This document shows positions 3,647 through 57,610 of a stretch of DNA of 57,610 bases, piece after piece. The position numbers and the translations under genes are program-made. The notes under the pieces are model-generated. The model worked only from the letters and a program-made list of their open reading frames with translations, did no database searches and was not told the DNA's origin. The DNA is taken from positions 1-57,610 of IMG/VR virus record IMGVR_UViG_3300036832_001282, one strand, 5' to 3'. This DNA comes from a virus (taxonomy: Duplodnaviria; Caudoviricetes). The stretch's first letter is position 1. Each line of letters opens with the position of its first letter.

Positions 3647-3659
3647 CGATTTATTCCCC

Positions 3660-4358
3660 TTACGAGATTGTCAGTTCGTCCCACTCGACGCCCATGGTGA
3701 ACTGCCACGGACCGCCAGCAGGCAGCGTCACTGTCACCACCAGACCTTCGTAGCGATCCAGCAATAACGAATGTTCACCCTGCAACCGCTCGAACAGGTT
3801 CATTCGCGACGAAGTAAACGGCTTAGCGGTGTCTGTCGGCGTGGCGAACACCTGACAATCCATCGGCGCGGCATCCAGGGTTCGCACACCGGGTGTCAGC
3901 GGTGCCGTGTTGGCGATCGTCATCATGGCGCGCGAGCCATGCATGCTGGTGCGCAACTGATTGTTCGGCGAGGTGAAGTTGGCTGAGATGCCGCCGCTGT
4001 CGAAGTTATTCCAGGCTCGTGCAGCGAACACCTTGAAGATAGCGACACCGCCGAGGAAGATGTTGTTGGCCCAGGCCGACATTCGAAGGCGGCGCACCGA
4101 GGCATAGTACGGGATCGGATCAGAAGTCCCCGGCCACATGAACGAGAAGATCGGCACATCGGTCAGCGCCGTCGAATTTGGCAGTATCCCGCTGGACGCG
4201 GTGAGCATGTACATGCCGCCACCGGCATATTCCAGCGGCAGCATCGACATCAGATGCATCGGCCGCTGCAAGGAGCCGTCGAGCGACGGCGACACGTCCT
4301 TCATGCGCACGTTGAACAGGTTGCCCAGCCCGTCTTTGATCTGTTTGTTGTCCATCAT
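3660..4358 (-). CDS. Hypothetical virion-associated protein
   Basis: 232 aa ORF with 4-nt overlap to the upstream gene, inside the tail cluster. Confidence 0.6.
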   Translation of the reverse strand: MMDNKQIKDGLGNLFNVRMKDVSPSLDGSLQRPMHLMSMLPLEYAGGGMYMLTASSGILPNSTALTDVPIFSFMWPGTSDPIPYYASVRRLRMSAWANNIFLGGVAIFKVFAARAWNNFDSGGISANFTSPNNQLRTSMHGSRAMMTIANTAPLTPGVRTLDAAPMDCQVFATPTDTAKPFTSSRMNLFERLQGEHSLLLDRYEGLVVTVTLPAGGPWQFTMGVEWDELTIS

Positions 4359-16999: not shown

Positions 17000-19900
17000 T
17001 CAGCCTGCTAAACCACCACCAAATGCATTTCCTGCGGGTATCCGAGGGCCACGCTGCGTCGGCGTCGCCTGCGTCTGCCGGGTCATCTCGACCGTCTTGA
17101 ACAAACCGTCGCCAGAAGCAGCCACGCTGGTATGCGGCGGCGCATTGACATCGACACTCAACTTGCCAGTGCCACGAACATTGTGCGTCATGTTGAGCGC
17201 TGATCGATTGAAATTGTCGAGAGCGCCAAGCTGCTCACCAGCGCCAGCACCCTGATCGCCACCTCCCAACAAACCGCCAAGCAGACCACCCAGCCCACCG
17301 CCACCGCCACCACCTCCAAGTAAACTACCGATGATGCCACCAAAACCACCGCCACCGCCTCCAAGTAAACTACCAATGATGCCGCCAAGACCACCGCCAC
17401 CGCCACCAATCATGCTCATGATGTTGCCAAACCCACCCGGCATGCCGCCAAGACCGCCGCCAAGACCGCCGCCAAGACCACCGCCAAGACCGCCGCCACC
17501 GCCGCCGCCACCGCCACCGCCGCCGCCACCGCCACCGCCACCGCCACCGCCGCCAGTAGCAGCAGCGATATTGGGCATGGCCCCCGGATCACCGCTGCCT
17601 TCACCACGACGAACCGCAAGACTGGTACGATCTCGCCAACTCAAAGAAACACCACCCTTGCCGGATGCGGTACCGCCCTGATTGCCGCCCAGCATCTCAA
17701 CCTGCTCGCGGCCATTAACCGTACGCGTGCGGCCGGTGAGAAAGCCAACGTGATGTGGTAGCACGCCAACATCACCCGGCTTGATTGCACCTTTAACCCC
17801 GGTGCCCCATTTGTAGAAGCTCGCCGCCGCCAATGAACCAGTGCCCTTAACACCAGCCTCTTTCAGTTCGGCATTGACGAACGCAGCACACCATTTGGTT
17901 TGCGCCGGATCGATGTGGATACCCTGTTTAGCGAAGAACGACGACAGCTTGGAATTGTCGCGAATTTCATCTTCACCGAGATGCTGCTTGGCCAAAGCCA
18001 GCGCTTGCACGGTGCCGATCGCACGGCCGGTCCCCTCCAGGCCAGGACTACCGGGCGCTGGCTGACCTTCCGCAATCGTGCCACCACCACCACCAGCGCC
18101 AGGGCCAGCGCCAGGGCCAGCGCCAGGGCCAGCGCCAGGACCAGCGCCAGCGTCAGAAGACATCGCAGCTTGCTGTTTCTTAACCCAACCGACATCTGGG
18201 TTCTCTTGCACAAACCGCTCGCCGGTTTTCGGATCAAAAGAAACGCGTGCACCACCTGAATGTACACGACCAGACTCGTTGCCGGTCGCGAGACTGGAAA
18301 CGTTCGAGCCACCAAGTACCGGAGTGGTGTATTGCTTCGAAAACTGCGCCATCGATTCGGCGCTGAACTTTTGTCCTAATTTGTTTTTGGTCGAACTCGG
18401 ATAATACTTCGGATCACGCAATGTCGCTTCAAGCGTCTTCCCACGCGCCGCCGCACGGTTCATTACGCTTTCAATATAAGCCTGCTTTGCCTTCGGCCCT
18501 TGACCACCAACTTCTGCTTCGGCCGACGCCTGCAGCAACCGCGCGACTTCCGGATTCTGTAGCTCCTTGCCGAACCGAGATCGCACATTAGCCAAGCTGC
18601 CATGCTGCACAGCATCAGCAGGCGCGTTACCAGGGCCAGCGCCAGGGCCAGCGCCAGGGCCAGCGCCAGGGCCAGCGCCAGGGCCAGTGCCAGGACCAGT
18701 ATCAGCGCCAGGACCAGTGCCAGGGCCAGCGCCAGGACCAGTATCAGCGCCAGGACCAGTGCCAGGGCCAGTGCCAGGGCCAGTGCCAGGGCCAGTGCCA
18801 GGGCCACCCCAGCCGCCACCGCCAAAGCCTCCGAGACCGCCCATGCGAGCCGCCAGCGAGCCGCCGGGACCAAGCCTTAGAAAACCAGCACCGCCAACAC
18901 CACCAAGACCAATATCACTTTGCTGCAGAAAATCATTCAGCCGTTTAAGCTCAGCCGTGTTAGCCTCGATGTACTTCTGCCACTCGTCATTACCCCCGCC
19001 ACGCTGATCGACTTGCTGCGAAAGCGGCCAGTCAGACATATCACCAGAGCCGAAGAACTGCGGCCGAGTTGCACCGCCAACAGCTGGTGGCAAACCTTCT
19101 CCCAACTGCTCTTCGAGACTCTTTTTGCCGCCACCAGCCTTGCTCCTCAACCAAGAAAAAATACCAAATGGATCACCCCAGCCTTCACCAATTTCAAGTT
19201 CGTTGGCTGATTTTCCTTCTCTCGCTTGACGGCGCAAATCATGTTTCAATGGCGTGCCTGCTTCGGCCCAACTCGCCATCCCCATGAAATCACCAAATAA
19301 ACCAGCCTTGGCGGCCAATGGCAACGTCGGCGCAAGTTTCCCGTACGCCCATGACCCCCATTCACTTCCCTTCATAGCCCCCATTGCACCAACATCATTT
19401 CCAAGATTTTTGATGTTCTGCCACGGATTGAGCAGATCAAGTAACGATCTATTGGGCGCAGGATGCTCGCCAGGACTACGCCCTTTTATTTTGGCAGCAA
19501 GACCTTCCACGCTGTAAACATCAGGCGTAGTCGCAATGCCAAGTGTCGGCGCGAGCCAAGGAAGTAACTGTCCACCTATTTGGCCGATTTTGGATAACCA
19601 TCCACTACCAACGGAAGGAACCTTTGGTGCCTCCTTGGCTATATCACTCCATGGTCCTTTCGGCGGCGGCTCGCCACCGGTCCCGTACTTCTCGAACCAA
19701 GACTCAACATTGCTTTTCGGAATCTCAGGTGCCTTACCAGCCACCTTGGCTGCGGCCTCTGCTTCTGCGGCAGCACCAGCGCCAGCGTCACCAGCGGCAC
19801 CGGCGTCAGTAGCGGCGGCACGACGACCAAAAATCCGTTTTAATATTTTAACCCCGCCCCAGATACCCGCACCAGCCGCAAGTCCGATAGCAGGATCAAC

Positions 19901-20989
19901 CAGCATTGGATGCTTCTCGGCCTGCTCAGTAGCAAATTCCTCCAACTTAGTAACAATTGGAGCAAACTTAGACATAAACTTTGAGGTTGCATCACTGATT
20001 GTGCTTGTTAACTTGGACCACGCTTCCGCGTTTTCCTCAAGCTGCTTTCCAACCTCATCAAATTCCGCGTTTAGCTCCTTCTGTTTTTCCGGACTAACTG
20101 CCTCAAATCCCTCACCACCTTTCTGCTCAGACTTGCGCATAAGTCGACGCGCCGCGTCTTCATCAAGCCCATAAACAGTTTGCGCGTACTTCTTAACATC
20201 CTGCGTCCCGTGAAATGCAAAATCTTTATCGCCCTGCCCCTGGTAGTATCGACGCGAAGCCTCCTCAACCTCCCGCATGCGACGCCCAGCAAGATTAAGC
20301 GCCTGTGGCCCCTGACCCTCTCTCATCAATCTATTGAATTCTTGCGCATCCTTTAGAGCTTGTCCGATCTGCCCATACTTAATACCGCCTTCACGAAGAA
20401 TGCCCTCTCCACCAATCCGGGTGATCCTCCCGGCTTGATCAATCATGCTACCCAAAGCACTTCTTGCTCGATCGCTGCTAAGCCCAATCTGAGTCAACGA
20501 ATCAATAAGATATTTATATTGCCCAGGAATCTGAGCCACATTTTCGGCGCTGGTTCTCAGCGTACTAAACTTCTCACCAACCTCCGCAACACTTTTGGCC
20601 ACTTCATACAAGGCCGTAGGCAACAAGGCGACAGCTGTTGCCAACCCACCAATGCCACCGCCAGCCAACTTTGCCATCTCGCCGAATTCGCGCAGCGGCA
20701 AACCGGTCAACTGCGAACCAAAACGCCCAAGGTCTTTAATTGCTGAATTGACGCCTTCATGGATAAGTTTACTATGTTCTCGTAACTCCTTAGACTGCTT
20801 TGTAACTTCACCAAGATTTTTTCCTAGTTTTTCGATCTCCTTGTTGGTCTGCCCAGCAATCTGCTGACCAATCTCCTTGATCTGAGAGTCCTTTCCGAAC
20901 TCCGCAATAGCAGCCTTGATACGCGCAAGCTCAGGCGTCGCCTCGTCAACGAGACGTACAGTCAGCGTTAGTTCTTGTTCAGACGCCAT
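17000..20989 (-). CDS. Tape measure protein with cell-wall hydrolase domains and Gly-rich linkers
   Basis: Follows the tail chaperone; helical N-terminus; SleB/Hydrolase_2-like AEVGGQG...ESVMNR; CHAP/TIGR02594-like WCAAFVN...HVGF...LGGNQG. Confidence 0.85.
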   Translation of the reverse strand: MASEQELTLTVRLVDEATPELARIKAAIAEFGKDSQIKEIGQQIAGQTNKEIEKLGKNLGEVTKQSKELREHSKLIHEGVNSAIKDLGRFGSQLTGLPLREFGEMAKLAGGGIGGLATAVALLPTALYEVAKSVAEVGEKFSTLRTSAENVAQIPGQYKYLIDSLTQIGLSSDRARSALGSMIDQAGRITRIGGEGILREGGIKYGQIGQALKDAQEFNRLMREGQGPQALNLAGRRMREVEEASRRYYQGQGDKDFAFHGTQDVKKYAQTVYGLDEDAARRLMRKSEQKGGEGFEAVSPEKQKELNAEFDEVGKQLEENAEAWSKLTSTISDATSKFMSKFAPIVTKLEEFATEQAEKHPMLVDPAIGLAAGAGIWGGVKILKRIFGRRAAATDAGAAGDAGAGAAAEAEAAAKVAGKAPEIPKSNVESWFEKYGTGGEPPPKGPWSDIAKEAPKVPSVGSGWLSKIGQIGGQLLPWLAPTLGIATTPDVYSVEGLAAKIKGRSPGEHPAPNRSLLDLLNPWQNIKNLGNDVGAMGAMKGSEWGSWAYGKLAPTLPLAAKAGLFGDFMGMASWAEAGTPLKHDLRRQAREGKSANELEIGEGWGDPFGIFSWLRSKAGGGKKSLEEQLGEGLPPAVGGATRPQFFGSGDMSDWPLSQQVDQRGGGNDEWQKYIEANTAELKRLNDFLQQSDIGLGGVGGAGFLRLGPGGSLAARMGGLGGFGGGGWGGPGTGPGTGPGTGPGTGPGADTGPGAGPGTGPGADTGPGTGPGAGPGAGPGAGPGAGPGNAPADAVQHGSLANVRSRFGKELQNPEVARLLQASAEAEVGGQGPKAKQAYIESVMNRAAARGKTLEATLRDPKYYPSSTKNKLGQKFSAESMAQFSKQYTTPVLGGSNVSSLATGNESGRVHSGGARVSFDPKTGERFVQENPDVGWVKKQQAAMSSDAGAGPGAGPGAGPGAGPGAGGGGGTIAEGQPAPGSPGLEGTGRAIGTVQALALAKQHLGEDEIRDNSKLSSFFAKQGIHIDPAQTKWCAAFVNAELKEAGVKGTGSLAAASFYKWGTGVKGAIKPGDVGVLPHHVGFLTGRTRTVNGREQVEMLGGNQGGTASGKGGVSLSWRDRTSLAVRRGEGSGDPGAMPNIAAATGGGGGGGGGGGGGGGGGGGGGGLGGGLGGGLGGGLGGMPGGFGNIMSMIGGGGGGLGGIIGSLLGGGGGGFGGIIGSLLGGGGGGGGLGGLLGGLLGGGDQGAGAGEQLGALDNFNRSALNMTHNVRGTGKLSVDVNAPPHTSVAASGDGLFKTVEMTRQTQATPTQRGPRIPAGNAFGGGLAG
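17270..17555 (-). repeat. Poly-Gly and GGGL/GGIIGSLLG coding repeats
   Basis: CCR triplet runs on the plus strand within the tape measure C-terminus. Confidence 0.85.
18092..18806 (-). repeat. 12-bp GPGA/GPGT coding tandem repeats (two blocks, ~18092-18150 and ~18631-18806)
   Basis: Repeated CAGGGCCAGYGC units on the plus strand; they explain the spurious ALALAL/ARASAR ORFs in other frames. Confidence 0.9.
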
Positions 20990-36046: not shown

Positions 36047-37251
36047 CACAACTTCACTAGTGCGCTGGCCCAATCACCAAGATCGTCCTGCTTACAGACT
36101 TTTATGTTCTGATAAAACGGCGACAGCCAACGCCAACTGGACCAGTAGCTCAGCAACAACTTGATGTTCGGATGCCCGATCGCACCGGCAAGATGAATCG
36201 CAGCCGTGTCAATTGAAACTATCGTATCGCAACATTCCATCAGTGCTGCACAGTCGGCAAAATCTTCGAAGTCAAACTGTTCGATACCTGCATCGGCGCA
36301 ACGTTGCTGCACGCTGACCAGACGCACGCCGGGCAACGCTTCGACCAGCAGCGGCAGCGGCAGCGCTCGCGGATAATCACCGCTATGCGCCACGCGTGGC
36401 GACCACGCCACGCCAACAAGACGGCCATGCGTATTGCCAAGCGTGCGCCGCCATTTGTCGACCAAGATCGGATTGGTTTGCAAATACGAATCAAGCGGCA
36501 CCGTGTCTGGCTGCTGCCACAGCATCCGCAACAGAAACAATAGTGAACAGAAATAATCAGCAGGCACCGGCTCGTTCACGACTGGCGCAACTTGCTCGCC
36601 CAGACGTTTCAATTCCGGCGGCAACCATAGTATCACTTCAGCGCCCATCGACCTGAGCATGCCAACGTAACGCAGACACATGATCGAATCGCCGAAACCG
36701 TGATCGTGAATCAGCAAAAGACGCTTGTCATGAAGCGGCTCACCGCACCAGCGCCGCAGCCCGAATTCAACACACTCAAGATATTGCGGCCGGGTAAACA
36801 ACGAGCCGCTGGTCTCGATCGCCGTGGCATACAAATCAAAACCTTCGCGCCAATGACCCAATTCTAATAAACACATTCCAGAATTATATTTTGCAGCTAG
36901 TGTATCAGCATACGATGCTGCGGTTTGAAACGCTACCAGTGCATTCAGCAACTGATCACCGCTGCGCATAGCCTCGCGCCCAGCATCGAGAAAATGTACG
37001 TACTTGTCGATCACTCCGGGCGATGTCTGTTTCGGCACCGCACGATAACCGATATGTTGCCCGCCACGATGAATCGCGATCTTCGAGCCGAATGGAATCG
37101 TGGCAAGGTGCCCATTTGCTGTTCGGACTGACAACACTTCGCCGTCAGTAGTCAGCGCTCGCCAACCATCAACGGTTTCTTCGACCGCCAGAATTGGCAG
37201 TAGGTCTGGCGGATCAAAATTTGCGTAACTTTGTTTGCTTGCCATAGGCAT
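36046..37251 (-). CDS. TPR-like + glycosyltransferase (GT9/GT-B-like) protein
   Basis: LLELGHWREGFDLY, WCGEPLHDKRLLLIHDHGFGDSIMCLRY, DFADCAALMECCDTIVSIDTAAIHLAGAIG, WRW. Confidence 0.8.
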   Translation of the reverse strand: MPMASKQSYANFDPPDLLPILAVEETVDGWRALTTDGEVLSVRTANGHLATIPFGSKIAIHRGGQHIGYRAVPKQTSPGVIDKYVHFLDAGREAMRSGDQLLNALVAFQTAASYADTLAAKYNSGMCLLELGHWREGFDLYATAIETSGSLFTRPQYLECVEFGLRRWCGEPLHDKRLLLIHDHGFGDSIMCLRYVGMLRSMGAEVILWLPPELKRLGEQVAPVVNEPVPADYFCSLLFLLRMLWQQPDTVPLDSYLQTNPILVDKWRRTLGNTHGRLVGVAWSPRVAHSGDYPRALPLPLLVEALPGVRLVSVQQRCADAGIEQFDFEDFADCAALMECCDTIVSIDTAAIHLAGAIGHPNIKLLLSYWSSWRWLSPFYQNIKVCKQDDLGDWASALVKL

Positions 37252-37263
37252 TTTAATCTGCTA

Positions 37264-37397
37264 GGTCATGATTTCTTAGGCACGGTGCATTACGGTCTAA
37301 TCGGCACTGCTGGGTAAGGCGTGTTAATGCAGGCGCAGTATGGTGCGGCACAGAATGGTCGGCTTATCCCGTAACGGCGAGGCTTGACAAGGCAGGC
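37264..37397 (+). ncRNA. Two-unit GGY-NN pentamer mini-array (putative guide RNA)
   Basis: GGC AC GGT GC ATT AC GGT CT ... GGT AA GGC GT GTT AA TGCAGGC GC AGT AT GGT GC GGC AC ... GGC GA GGC TT GAC AA GGCAGGC; same grammar as 55518-57610. Confidence 0.6.
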
Positions 37398-37401
37398 TAA
37401 A

Positions 37402-37433
37402 GAAAACGGTCATTCTCACGAGTGACCGTTTTC
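37402..37433. terminator. Bidirectional intrinsic terminator
   Basis: GAAAACGGTCATTC-TCAC-GAGTGACCGTTTTC with T-tracts on both strands; the G-U pair works on the plus strand. Confidence 0.75.
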
Positions 37434-37445
37434 ACTTTTATAGAA

Positions 37446-38525
37446 TCACTTCCAATTTGGCGTAAGCCAACTAATACCTCTTGGATCACGTAGTGCCCAC
37501 GACACTGGCCATCGAATTTTCAACGCCAGCGAATCAGTTTGATACATCGATTTTCGCGGTCCAGCTGTCGGCACTGCTGATGGCACAGAATCCATATGCA
37601 GCGCTGCAGCAGTTGCAACTTCGACATGCGGAGCAGGATCAAGCGCGGCCACTAATGCAGCAGGTGCAATTGCGAGCATATCGCCGCCAATCGAATTTGT
37701 TCCAAGCACAACAACATTGCTGGCTTCGAAAATGAACCGCAACGCCATTGAAACAGCACGACCGGGTGAGACAACAATTAGATACGGTCCATTTTGACCA
37801 ACTGATGAAACAGCGTTAATCAACGATGTTAAATCTTCAGCAAATGCTTCAACGGAGTCAGCATTATTACTTGCTGTCAACGCAGCGATGCCGTTACGCA
37901 AACCAGCTGGTCGCGCCGCTGTTGCCGGATTGACATCGAATAACGTGTCATCGAGCGCACAACCAGCAGAACGCATCAAGGCATCGCCGATCAGCTGCTC
38001 GGCATTACTGGATTCAATCATTTCACGTGTTAGCACCGCAATTGATGCAAGCTTGAACGGCGTCAACAACGCTGGTGTTGCTGATAATTGGCGAACTGGA
38101 ATTGGATCACCTTCAGCAACAAATCCTGAATTAGCTCCTGATGCACTGAATCCTGGTGCACTGATTGAAGCACGGCCAGCAAAATCAAGTAACAATGAAC
38201 GTTTGAATACCTCGGCCGCCGCTGTCGCCGGGCCAAGACCAGCCAGCATGTCATTGACAGTTCGTTGCGCTAATTCTGCAGCCCAAGTAGATACCGTCGT
38301 CATTGCAGGCGCAGAAGCAGCGCGCTCGATCACTTCCAACGTGAGCTTGTCGCTTGGCCACATCAACGCTGCCGCTTCTTGCGGAGACATCTTGCGTACA
38401 ATGCCGACTGCTTTCGCTGTCAGCGCCCGCACGAAAGTGTTGCCTTGCGGCAGCGGCAGCGGGTTGCGCTTGAAAGCGCGACCTGAAAAAGCAGATGTCC
38501 CGATGTATTCCATCGCCTGTGCCAT
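37446..38525 (-). CDS. Second major-capsid-like protein (paralog of the capsid part of 29472-31778)
   Basis: RAASAPAMTTVSTWAAEL vs RAPSAPAMTTVVGWAQEL; FVAEGDPIPVRQ vs FVGEGMAIPVRQ; SMYQTDSLAL vs SLFQTDSLAL. Confidence 0.85.
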   Translation of the reverse strand: MAQAMEYIGTSAFSGRAFKRNPLPLPQGNTFVRALTAKAVGIVRKMSPQEAAALMWPSDKLTLEVIERAASAPAMTTVSTWAAELAQRTVNDMLAGLGPATAAAEVFKRSLLLDFAGRASISAPGFSASGANSGFVAEGDPIPVRQLSATPALLTPFKLASIAVLTREMIESSNAEQLIGDALMRSAGCALDDTLFDVNPATAARPAGLRNGIAALTASNNADSVEAFAEDLTSLINAVSSVGQNGPYLIVVSPGRAVSMALRFIFEASNVVVLGTNSIGGDMLAIAPAALVAALDPAPHVEVATAAALHMDSVPSAVPTAGPRKSMYQTDSLALKIRWPVSWALRDPRGISWLTPNWK

Positions 38526-54053: not shown

Positions 54054-55447
54054 GACAAAAATCTGAGCTTCGTTCCGGCCAGCAGCATATCATCGACGCG
54101 TTGTACCAGAACAACGAGATGATCTGCGCCTTGCGCCCAGGCGGCGGCAAGACCATCGCCGCCTTGACCGCCATCGAGGAGCTTATCTGCCACGGTGAGA
54201 TCAGGCACGCTCTGGTGACCGCGCCGAAACGCGTGGCCAGGATCGTGTGGCCGGATGAATTGGAGACCTGGGAGAACACGAGCCGCTTGCGCTGCGCCGT
54301 GCTCAGCGCCGGTCCGGCCGAACGCAGCGTGCTGCTGCACGACGCGCCAAACCGCGATCTGACCATCTTCGGCCATGACATCATCGAGTGGCTCATCATG
54401 CAGATCGACAAACTGCCGTCCGATCATCCGTTGTTCGATTTGCTGGTGATCGATGAAATTTCCCGGTTTCGCAATCCGCGAGGCAAGCGCTACAAATTAT
54501 TATGCAAGCATATTCACCGCTGGCGCATGGTGTGGGGCTTGTCCGGCACCTTGCGGCCGTCGAGCGCCATGGATTTGTTCGGCCCGGTGCGCTTGGTATC
54601 ACGCGGCAAGCTCTGGGGCAGGAGCTTCTATCAATGGCAGAAGGAAAGATTTTTCCCAACTGATTACAACGGTTATAACTGGGAGCCGAAACCGGGCGCG
54701 GAAGATCGTATCAATGCCGAAATCGTCCCGTGGCTGGTCACCGCCGAGATACCGCAACTACCCGAACCGACGATCGTGCTTGACCGGCTCGAACTGCCGG
54801 AAGCAGCACGGCGCGAGTATAACCGGATGGAGCGCCGGTTGATTGCCGATATAGGCCAGAACGAGACCGTGATTGCCGACAGTCGCGCCATCGCGATCGG
54901 CAAACTGAGCCAGATGAGCAACGGTTTTATTTATTCTAGTGATAATTCAAAAACCGTACACGCGCTGCACGACGCCAAGCGTGATTGGCTGCGTGACCTG
55001 ATCGAGACTTCAACGTCACCGATGCTGCTGATCTACGAATTTCGTGAAGACCTGTCGATGCTGCGTGAGTTGCTTGGCGACAGCCTGCCGTATCTCGGCG
55101 CTGGTGTTTCCGACAAGCGCGCCGAACAGCACGTCAAGCGCTGGAACGAAGGCCGCCTGCCGTTCATGGCCTTGCACCCTGCCAGCGCCGCCCACGGCTT
55201 GAATCTGCAGCATGGCGGCGCGGACATGACATGGATCGCACCGACGTGGAATTCTGAATTATGGGAGCAAACTATTGCGCGGCTGCACCGCTCCGGTCAG
55301 ACTCGGCAAGTGGTGATTCGCGTCGGCATCGCCATCGGCACCATCGATGAAATGAAGCTCGATCGTGTGCATCTGAAGCTGTCGGCACAACAAAGCTTCG
55401 AGCGCTACGTCAGTCATCGTACTTTGAATCTGGCATCTGTAGACTGA
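54050..55447 (+). CDS. SNF2-family helicase
   Basis: PGGGKT, LVIDEIS, GLSGT, HPASAAHGLNLQ, QTIARLHRSGQ. Confidence 0.93.
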   Translation: MRQKSELRSGQQHIIDALYQNNEMICALRPGGGKTIAALTAIEELICHGEIRHALVTAPKRVARIVWPDELETWENTSRLRCAVLSAGPAERSVLLHDAPNRDLTIFGHDIIEWLIMQIDKLPSDHPLFDLLVIDEISRFRNPRGKRYKLLCKHIHRWRMVWGLSGTLRPSSAMDLFGPVRLVSRGKLWGRSFYQWQKERFFPTDYNGYNWEPKPGAEDRINAEIVPWLVTAEIPQLPEPTIVLDRLELPEAARREYNRMERRLIADIGQNETVIADSRAIAIGKLSQMSNGFIYSSDNSKTVHALHDAKRDWLRDLIETSTSPMLLIYEFREDLSMLRELLGDSLPYLGAGVSDKRAEQHVKRWNEGRLPFMALHPASAAHGLNLQHGGADMTWIAPTWNSELWEQTIARLHRSGQTRQVVIRVGIAIGTIDEMKLDRVHLKLSAQQSFERYVSHRTLNLASVD

Positions 55448-55479
55448 AAGGATCGTCAGTCGCGACACACCTCTGAAGT

Positions 55480-55512
55480 AAAAATGCCCGCACCTTGCGA
55501 TGCGAGCATTTT
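55480..55512 (-). terminator. Intrinsic terminator closing the array transcript
   Basis: Minus strand AAAATGCTCGCATC-GCAA-GGTGCGGGCATTTTT: GNRA loop, and two G-U pairs valid only on the minus strand. May also stop the convergent helicase transcript. Confidence 0.8.
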
Positions 55513-55517
55513 CATTT

Positions 55518-57610
55518 ACCTGCCTTGCGAGGCTGAACCGCTCCGTTCCTTGCCCGTCCGTCCGTGCCTATCCGGTCCCCGCCTGCCGTGCTTAACCGCG
55601 CCGATCACGACCGGAATCACACCGCGCCATAATCAGCCACGTCGTATCATGCCTGCCGGATACCGCCATACACCGCCGCTTCCCGCCATTCGCACCTTTC
55701 AGGCCGAAACGAACCGTGCCTGCGTCACCGTGCCCGTCCGCTCCTGTCCCAGCCGCTCCAATGACCGCCGTGCCTGCTTTGCCGTGCCTAGCCAATCCTA
55801 GCCTGATCGATCCGAAACGAACCGTGCCTGCATTGCCAATCCGGGGCCGTCCTATCCTACCACTCCAGGCCGGTTCCCGCCTCGCCTGCACTGCCATGTC
55901 ATACCGCGCCGATCACGACCGGGAAGCGCCTATCCATTCCGCACCTGCCAATCCTAGCCGTGCCTACTCGCACCCAATCGTTTACGAGCCACGCCTGCCA
56001 GTCCGTACTCTGCCGAACCCATCTGCAACGAACCATAACCCGCCAAACAAACCATGTCCGAACGAGCCTGAACGATCCGTGCCTGCCGGTCCTTGCCAGA
56101 TCGCAACTGAACGAACACCGACGAGCCCCACCGCTCGCACCGCGCCATGTCCGCGCCTGCCACACCACGCCCAGCCATGCCTGTCCGTGCCGGTCCCAAT
56201 TTAGCCAATTGCGCCATGCCTGCGCTGCCGCGCCAACCATGCCGGTCTAGGCCCTGCCGCGCCATTCCCATGCTTCCGCTGCCGTCCGCGCCCTGCCGCG
56301 TCGCTCCACGTCCCGCCGATTCCGTTTCTGCCGTACCTGCTTCGCCTTGCCTTGCCTGCTTTGCTTAGCCCTTCCGTGCCTAGGCTATCCTAGACCACAT
56401 GCGCCGATCCCTACTGTCCGTGCCTGCTTTGCTCATCCGCAACGAGCCTAACTAGACCTGTCACAGCCACATCCTTCCGCACCCGTCCGTGCCTGCCAGT
56501 CCACGCCATGCTGCTCCGCGCCCTGCCCGCGTTCCGCCGTGCCTATCCTTGCCTGTCGTCCACGCCCAGCCCTTCCATGTCTATCCAATCATGTCACGCC
56601 GCGCCTGCCTTGCCGATCCGAATCGCTTTGGGATGCGCCGGACCAAATCACACCATCCATGCCTGCCGAACACCGCCCAACACTGCCCAGTTCTTCCCTT
56701 GCCATTCCAATGACAGCCGCGCCTGCTTTGCCGTGCCAAACCTAGCCGAGACGAAATCAGGCCGACCGCTCCCGTCCACGCACGGCCTTACCCTGCCGCG
56801 CCTGCTTACCCCGTGAAGTAACAAATCGTGCCTGCATTACTTCGCCAAGCCGATCCTGATCATGCCACTCCGGTCTGCGCGATCCGCGCCTTGCCTGCTT
56901 CGCCGATCCTTGCCGGTTCGTGCCAGTCCTAACCGATCCGCGCCTGCCGTGCCCTTCCTTGCCTAATCGCTCCGTATTCTGCCAATGCAACCGGGTAAAC
57001 ACCGCAACCCGCCTGCCGTGTCTAGCTGAGCCCTGCCCAATCGATCCTTTCCTTTCCATTCCGCGCCTGCTTCGCCGATCCGGTCCACGCCTTGCTCAGC
57101 CCGTCCGTCCATTCCATGCCTGCTTCGCCTTATTGTGCCGGTCCCCGTCGAGCCGTGCCTTTCCTTACCGTGCCGCACCTATTCGCAGCCGCTTCACGCC
57201 TGCCTTGCCACGCCCTGCCCGTCCTTATCGGTCCAATCCTTGCCTGCTTCACCTTGCCTTGCCTGCCATCCTTGCACCGCCGCGCCGCTCCTTAACTGTA
57301 CGCGCCTGCTAATGCCTTGCCGACCCCTGCTCTGCCACAACGATCACTAATGTGCCGTGCCTGCATTGCCTTGCAATGCCGTTCGCGCCGGTCCGCGTCT
57401 TTCACCACCTCGCCTGCACGGCCATGCACGGCCATGTCTCGTCACGCCGGTCCGCGTCTTTCACCACCTCGCCTGCACGGCCATGCACTGCCATGCACTG
57501 ACGAACCGGAGCGGGCCGGACCATTTCGGCCGGACCATGCCTAGCCTGCTTCGCCTTTCCACGCCTAAACTGTCCGAATCGAATTGAACCGTTTCAGCCA
57601 ATCCTCGCCT
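55518..57610 (-). repeat. Non-coding GGY-NN pentamer array punctuated by GCAGGC (putative guide-RNA array), truncated at window end
   Basis: 34 exact RCCTGC copies on the plus strand from 55518 to 57544, plus variants; the intervening sequence has 5-nt periodicity; no credible ORF. Confidence 0.85.

Follow-up and report, generated by a model that had tools for sequence, protein, structure and literature searches.

The window analysed here is an entire IMG/VR virus record originating from soil metagenomes (57,610 bp, linear, rated 85% complete). It carries two arrays of five-nucleotide repeats that, from the sequence evidence, we read as guide-RNA arrays of the phage system VIPR (Viral Interference Programmable Repeat), each probably closed by a strand-specific terminator hairpin of its own. 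We put the probability of this reading at roughly three in four. The VIPR system itself is already known, having been first described in 2026 (bioRxiv 10.64898/2026.04.26.720920), and the arrays of this window are an addition to it; they leave the published mechanism unchanged and extend the catalogue. The uncultured soil phage holds one of the largest VIPR-type guide arrays met in our analysis (>2.1 kb, at least 41 units) and, far from it, a two-unit copy with the same 3' module.

According to the available part of the text of 10.64898/2026.04.26.720920, the VIPR guide RNAs (vrRNAs) are phage-encoded, about 100 nt long and made of 9-16 YNNGG repeats, with a conserved GGY and hypervariable NN, followed by a structured 3' tail that is called invariable. 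Vipr, a minimal Cas7-like RAMP with a G-loop and a thumb, is described there as binding the vrRNA, and the NN positions as reading double-stranded DNA with a one-base skip. Both VIPR preprints (10.64898/2026.04.26.720920 and 10.64898/2026.04.26.720927), in the parts available, describe a structured cap or pseudoknot at the 3' end of the SUSP1 vrRNA, and the available part of the second describes a purine-excluding pocket in the SUSP1 structure. The word 'terminator' does not occur in the text of 10.64898/2026.04.26.720920 as far as it is available.

The main array lies at the right end of the window, next to the replication module:

55517..57610, minus strand: main vrRNA-type array of GGY/NN pentamers, extending past the contig end.
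54050..55447, plus strand: SNF2/DEAD-type helicase gene (Pfam PF00176, PF00270, PF04851).

The helicase gene is the final gene of the plus-strand replication operon and is convergent with the array. The minus strand from 55517 to the contig end contains 42% G, and its GG dinucleotides come round about every 5 nt (autocorrelation 0.34 for lag 5, 0.30 for lag 10). Within the array the junction word GCAGG occurs 41 times, with a median of 54 nt from one to the next. Three DNA soil runs contain the array, with one base difference and no indels, and none of their contigs usefully lengthens the window; among RNA runs, none was found that contains 54600-57610. Neither tRNAs nor matches to Rfam at the gathering threshold were found anywhere in the window, and this includes hammerhead ribozymes between the vrRNAs. 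Outside the main array the GCAGG word occurs 131 times on the minus strand and 53 times on the plus strand of the window, an excess that may reflect the coding strand of most genes.

The second array is small and lies beside the major capsid gene:

37257..37397, plus strand: two-unit mini-array with GCAGGC inside and GGCAGGC at its end, the top period-5 outlier outside the main array.
37446..38525, minus strand: HK97-type major capsid protein gene (phrog_617 major head protein).

Homologues of the product of this gene bear the name phage major capsid protein and contain PF05065. The mini-array spans about 140 nt, is antisense to both neighbouring genes and is in register with the final two main-array units when the two are aligned. 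It is real: as the strongest period-5 GG outlier beyond the main array it reaches a power of 12.8, against 8.9 at the next unrelated site of the window. A promoter scan found no sigma-70-like promoter upstream of it.

Both arrays end in the same way, as the sequence-only reading had claimed. The layout, read directly in the sequence, is GGCAGGY followed by 5 nt and then by AAAA-stem-tetraloop-stem-TTTT, and its parts are as follows:

55518..55524, minus strand: terminal junction word GGCAGGT, the final -1 step of the main array, read in the sequence.
55517-55513, minus strand: main-array linker AAATG, read in the sequence.
55512-55499, minus strand: main-array stem AAAATGCTCGCATC, read in the sequence.
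55498-55495, minus strand: main-array loop GCAA, read in the sequence.
55494-55481, minus strand: main-array return stem GGTGCGGGCATTTT, with an extra T at 55480, read in the sequence.
55480..55512, minus strand: main-array hairpin of the intrinsic-terminator type (A4, 10-bp core, GCAA loop, T5), by folding and the strict terminator test; convergent with the helicase gene.
37391-37397, plus strand: mini-array terminal word GGCAGGC, read in the sequence.
37398-37402, plus strand: mini-array linker TAAAG, read in the sequence.
37403-37415, plus strand: mini-array stem AAAACGGTCATTC, read in the sequence.
37416-37419, plus strand: mini-array loop TCAC, read in the sequence.
37420-37432, plus strand: mini-array return stem GAGTGACCGTTTT, read in the sequence.
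37403..37432, plus strand: mini-array hairpin of the terminator type (A4, 9-bp core, TCAC loop, T4), by folding.

The linker is 5 nt long in both arrays and the nine bases CAAGGCAGG preceding Y are the same. The two array ends align without a gap over the entire last 63-nt unit, in which the GG columns are conserved and the intervening bases vary. The stems are unlike, as had been noticed earlier, and no sequence is common to the two. The claim that G-U pairs lie on the GGY strand also held: the main stem has two U.G wobbles there and the mini stem one, and the opposite strand has A.C mismatches in their place. Folding of both strands agrees with this: the GG strand gives the more stable hairpin both at the main array (-22.8 against -13.1 kcal/mol; z = -5.2 against -2.0) and at the mini-array (-21.4 against -18.1 kcal/mol; z = -4.8 against -3.8).

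We scanned both strands of the 57,610-bp window for terminators by a strict test, which accepts a hairpin of -12 kcal/mol or better abutting a run of at least four T. The scan gave 23 hits at about 22 distinct sites. By our own arithmetic from these hits, the chance of one site within 45 nt past a given array end on a given strand is about 0.009, and the chance for both ends is about 7e-5. Both array ends pass on the array strand, where each has the GC-rich stem-loop followed by a U-tract of an intrinsic terminator; the main-array hairpin passes on the minus strand only, and the mini-array hairpin is the sole terminator-like site in 36900-37700.

The assignment to VIPR draws on the repeat itself and on the protein encoded beside such repeats. 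The main array shows what is asked of a VIPR array, at least four tandem YNNGG units with a conserved GGY and hypervariable NN, with one deviation, A at the Y position. The third base of GGnnnGG is C or T in 63% of cases in the main array, 94% in the array of the related locus L119 and 87% in that of L121; the next two bases are near-uniform. In the other, scan-derived arrays the C excess at this position arises partly by construction, since they were chosen with GGC. A occupies the third position in 34% of the main array (GGA in-phase repeats), which contrasts with the purine-excluding pocket in the available description of SUSP1. We scanned IMG/VR at the DNA level alone for six GGCNN units in a row. 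This gave at least 120 loci and, among the matches listed, 103 of 120 hold period-5 arrays. There are 93 loci with arrays of at least 150 nt among these matches and 72 of them encode a single protein family of about 215 aa, as found with a Vipr profile. For 79 of 82 arrays among the matches listed the gene of this family lies on the GG strand, and the median gap between gene and array is 7 nt.

The profile built from 41 proteins of this array-linked family (profile A2) matches the PDB chain 36pp_D, "SUSP1 Vipr protein", with E = 7.4e-38, the match covering residues 1-190 of the 202 in the chain. The family member of L119 matches profile A2 with an E-value of 8.7e-52, and its AlphaFold (AF2) model has a pLDDT of 86 and finds Cas7/Csm3/Cmr RAMPs as top Foldseek matches (E about 1e-4, TM 0.3-0.5). 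A single-sequence search of the PDB with the same protein returned nothing at E <= 0.01, so the link of the family to Vipr rests on profile and fold. The window itself gave no Vipr hit at E <= 10, probably because the contig, rated 85% complete, ends inside the array. The match of the arrays to the published vrRNA code, which the available text of the preprint presents as an experimentally shown guide-RNA system, backs the earlier proposal of a function at the RNA level.

We searched 13 in-phase segments of the arrays against 3.3 Mb of phage loci, a database far too small for the purpose. The best NN match under a 1-nt skip was 0.73-0.88, where at least 80% is asked of a natural target, and in this far too small set other skip rules and shuffled guides did at least as well as the 1-nt skip. 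The pattern GGCGAAGCAGGCNNGG gave single, seemingly chance matches only.

The relatives with arrays show how the cassette is organised. The closest relative of the window is L119, with a helicase that is 71% identical. Its cassette lies on the strand opposite the helicase and reads vipr (phrog_4652), a phrog_15946 ORF, a 1.2-kb array that begins at the stop codon of this ORF, and a hairpin. The L119 terminator is a perfect 10-bp hairpin followed by T6 and is convergent with the helicase gene. The end of its array differs from those of the window in having an 11-nt linker and a terminal GGCTGGC. From this likeness we infer that a cassette organised as in L119, including a vipr gene, would lie beyond position 57610 of the window. 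The array of L121 is found between a ParB_N gene and the ribosome-binding site of the next ORF, and has no terminator. L119 and L121 are the only array-bearing loci among 67 viral helicase loci, with L173 showing a borderline signal at its end. No arrays were found in 80 metagenome-contig helicase loci, all of them 56-61% identical, a set that does not include the 65-73% relatives seen in another search. A single-protein locus search with the window helicase returned nothing. The VIPR cassette is thus sporadic in this phage group. The family of about 170 aa to which the phrog_15946 ORF belongs (no Pfam; L119 4352-4900, minus strand) directly abuts the array in 16 loci and is a candidate VIPR accessory (vap) gene.

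The units of the main array follow a simple grammar. The GCAGGC word is a 4-nt step (GGCA|GGC) between runs of in-phase pentamers, and the junction consensus of the array is GGC..GGC..gGCAGGC..GG. Of the phase changes, 41 of 46 in the main array of the window, 17 of 20 in L119 and 240 of 374 in the other arrays of at least 300 nt are such -1 steps, and L121 has +1 steps in 11 of its 12 phase changes. The median internal run in those other arrays counts 10.8 pentamers (IQR 8.4-13.5; n = 312), a length that matches the vrRNA size given in the available preprint text. Both arrays of the window terminate exactly on a 4-nt-step junction. The legend of fig. S18 of 10.64898/2026.04.26.720920, within the part of the preprint available, states that adjacent vrRNAs of staggered arrays share "1 nt overlapping positions", and the -1 phase steps fit this overlap. 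The -1 phase step is a candidate unit boundary of staggered arrays.

We did not find a conserved structured tail after each vrRNA in the window arrays, which have one hairpin per array end only, and this tail-less organisation would fit the staggered architecture rather than type II. A more speculative extension, which we regard as tentative and rather doubtful, is that the GGYN|GGY step is a staggered-array unit boundary serving as a filament stop or processing site, that a plain terminator hairpin replaces the pseudoknot tail, and that the solitary one- or two-unit antisense arrays behind capsid genes, seen in the window and in G002, could be guide-only modules borrowing or titrating the Vipr of another element.

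Other explanations of the repeats were considered. A low-complexity protein-coding region was rejected on the ground that a 5-nt period with frequent 4-nt steps cannot hold a reading frame. After the link to VIPR had been made we dropped four more candidates: a protein sponge of the CsrA/Hfq/TRAP type, Chi-site decoys at the genome end, an origin based on R-loops or a G-quadruplex in the manner of immunoglobulin switch regions, and terminal short repeats of the T7 type. Two other kinds of step pattern were seen along the way. L121 (18880-19715) combines its +1 steps with a recurrent GGCGAGGAC word about every 60 nt, and the arrays of L197 (6301-7161) and L299 (833 nt) run for about 170 pentamers with one phase change only, between vipr and a gene whose product, by motif reading, may begin like a RusA resolvase.

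The role of the hairpin can be explained in other ways. It could primarily be a structural 3' handle of the last vrRNA, like the filament-capping VIPR 'tail', rather than a transcription terminator. The preprints, in their available parts, describe the vrRNA as capped by a conserved 3' tail or pseudoknot with structure, and the two stems of the window keep their length (13-14 bp) and a tetraloop despite their different sequences. Moreover, the solitary mini-arrays of L406/L407 and of G002 (a 76,054-bp virus record rated 100% complete) have GC-rich hairpins 0-3 nt past the last GG with no clear T-run. The published tail, however, is called invariable in the available text, whereas the two stems have no sequence in common; canonical U-tracts and A-tracts are present at both hairpins; and the 40 internal units of the main array are without a hairpin, zero inverted repeats having been found in 55440-57610. 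On balance we think a primarily structural role unlikely.

The hairpins could also belong mainly to the opposite-strand genes, as terminators of the helicase operon and the major capsid gene that the arrays merely abut. A- and T-tracts flank both hairpins, and the opposite strands still fold with the energies given above. Terminators commonly follow major capsid genes, and the mini-array hairpin begins 13 nt past the capsid stop codon, a classic terminator position, where its terminator score on the capsid strand is -12.5. Against this explanation, we have found that a helicase-strand terminator within about 170 nt occurs in only 8 of the 118 helicase loci with enough flank, and that the window and L119 are not among these 8. 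A terminator opposite the helicase strand, at most 170 nt from the helicase stop, occurs in 5 of the 118 (the window, L119, L161, L357 and L143). At the capsid gene, the next ORF follows within -13 to +19 nt, that is without a gap, in 67 of 77 loci, and a gap with a period-5 array after the gene is found only in the window and L406/L407. The gap in L406/L407 holds a solitary array of about 15 pentamers antisense to the capsid gene, with a 10-bp hairpin right after the last GG. Also, the wobble pairs favour the array strand at both hairpins, and the main-array hairpin fails the strict terminator test on the plus (helicase) strand. The hairpins are missing in array-less helicase and capsid relatives and therefore arrive with the arrays; the observations support that they come along with the arrays and not with the opposite-strand genes, so that ownership by these genes is improbable. 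Use of the hairpins from the opposite side as well is possible.

Least probable of all, and to our minds scarcely credible, is that the arrays act at the DNA level (as an origin, packaging or R-loop/G-quadruplex element) or are functionless decaying orphan repeats: the main array does lie beside the replication module with a strong GC skew of -0.33, the contig has no vipr gene, the mini-array is degenerate (GG gaps of 9-15 nt) and G002 has three solitary arrays without a Vipr hit, but a one-strand 5-nt period with variable NN is the RNA code of the available preprint text, arrays and Vipr genes are closely associated on the same strand, and the near identity of the array across the three soil runs speaks against rapid decay.

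With the guide-RNA reading, the arrays would work in the following way. The GG-rich strand would be transcribed into vrRNAs of GGY/NN pentamers, on which the Cas7-like Vipr would polymerise by way of GGY, the NN dinucleotides reading the DNA target with a one-base skip as in the available accounts of the VIPR preprints. The array of this lineage would be staggered, with about 8-12 in-phase pentamers followed by the 4-nt step GGCA|GGC, and the RNA may be processed at these junctions. The A-tract/GC-stem/U-tract hairpin of the array cassette, five bases past the last junction, would end the array transcript by intrinsic termination, and the last vrRNA would keep a stable stem at its 3' end where the SUSP1 type has its 3' pseudoknot tail. 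Since each array is inserted head-on against its neighbour gene (helicase or capsid), read-through from the opposite side is probably also reduced by the hairpin, though less efficiently.

The layout of the array end does not extend to homologous arrays in general. The exact GGCAGGY, 5 nt and AAAA hairpin, for which the earlier reading had advised a check in homologous arrays, is not conserved; L119 and L121 differ, and among the matches listed only 7 of the 96 long arrays with enough 3' flank end in a hairpin with a T-run, whereas a control position shows one in 10 of 98. Over 86 arrays the 3' ends fold no more stably (mean -9.9) than the 5' ends (-11.3) or distant flanks (-11.7). The exact terminal layout is lineage-specific and not a general VIPR feature. 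The direction of the flanking genes is more widely informative: where it could be called among the matches listed, the genes run along the GG strand in 48 cases against 8 upstream and in 46 against 6 downstream, and most arrays sit inside operons. As judged from these gene orders, flanking-gene direction, and not the terminator, is the general proof of the predicted transcribed strand. That the GGY strand is the transcribed one, as had been suggested from the hairpins, is now backed by the direction of flanking genes, by the strand of the Vipr gene and by the link of the hairpins to the arrays. The strand of an array can be told by its flanking genes or, within this lineage, by the asymmetric terminator, and period-5 GG on one strand is a protein-independent signature for finding arrays in metagenomes.

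The arrays can be compared with several known systems. They resemble type II VIPR of Escherichia phage SUSP1, as described in the available text of 10.64898/2026.04.26.720920, in being phage-borne, in their GGY/NN pentamers in runs of about 9-16 repeats, in having a structured element after the last repeat and, in relatives of the window phage, in the Cas7-like protein of about 20 kDa encoded beside the array on the same strand. They differ from it, within the same text, in their size (>2.1 kb and at least 41 units, against about four vrRNAs of about 100 nt), in having GGCAGGC junctions and one terminal hairpin instead of an invariant tail of about 40 nt per unit, in their share of GGA in-phase repeats and in the contig without a vipr gene. 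The staggered vrRNA arrays, compared by the legend of fig. S18 alone, are alike in that one vrRNA's end marks where the next begins, as the -1 steps do here.

Intrinsic bidirectional terminators between convergent genes consist of a GC-rich stem and a tetraloop with a U-tract downstream and a complementary A-tract upstream. Both hairpins of the window share this stem, tetraloop, tracts and convergent placement; unlike such terminators, they are asymmetric through their wobbles, which favour the array strand, and are missing in array-less relatives. CRISPR arrays likewise alternate short conserved punctuation with variable guide segments and have a RAMP as partner. In VIPR, unlike CRISPR, the guide information is non-contiguous (NN per pentamer) and the punctuation is only about 7 nt, and there is no palindromic repeat, no Cas6-type hairpin and no adaptation genes here.

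Arrays of the same kind were also seen in named phages. Gordonia phage Pipp (MN234179; L306, about 3650-3810) has a GGY/NN period-5 array with a power of 24.7 that adjoins the Vipr homologue gene 42, and Mycobacterium phage Donkeykong (NC_051648; L307, about 2600-2900) has one with a power of 21.9 that adjoins the Vipr homologue gene 49. Pipp genes 43/44 and Donkeykong genes 47/48, annotated as hypothetical proteins, overlap these arrays; because the arrays fall inside these ORFs, the CDS calls are probably spurious.

The G002 record, in which no match to the Vipr profile was found, has solitary arrays of the size of one vrRNA at L471 6640-6730, L471 14520-14600 and L407 3505-3610. Two of the three are antisense to their neighbours and are those with the GC-rich hairpins close behind the last GG; the third is in a 5' leader just ahead of a start codon.

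Two further repeats of other kinds were seen in the window. A 78-nt tandem repeat (937-1151; 2.8 copies, 85% match) lies inside overlapping ORFs near the left contig end. Dense tandem repeats of 6, 12, 36 and 45 nt (CCACCG, CCAGGG and similar) occupy 17286-18911 within an ORF of 1329 aa (17000-20989, minus strand) that probably encodes a tail fibre protein of a Gly-rich or collagen-like kind.
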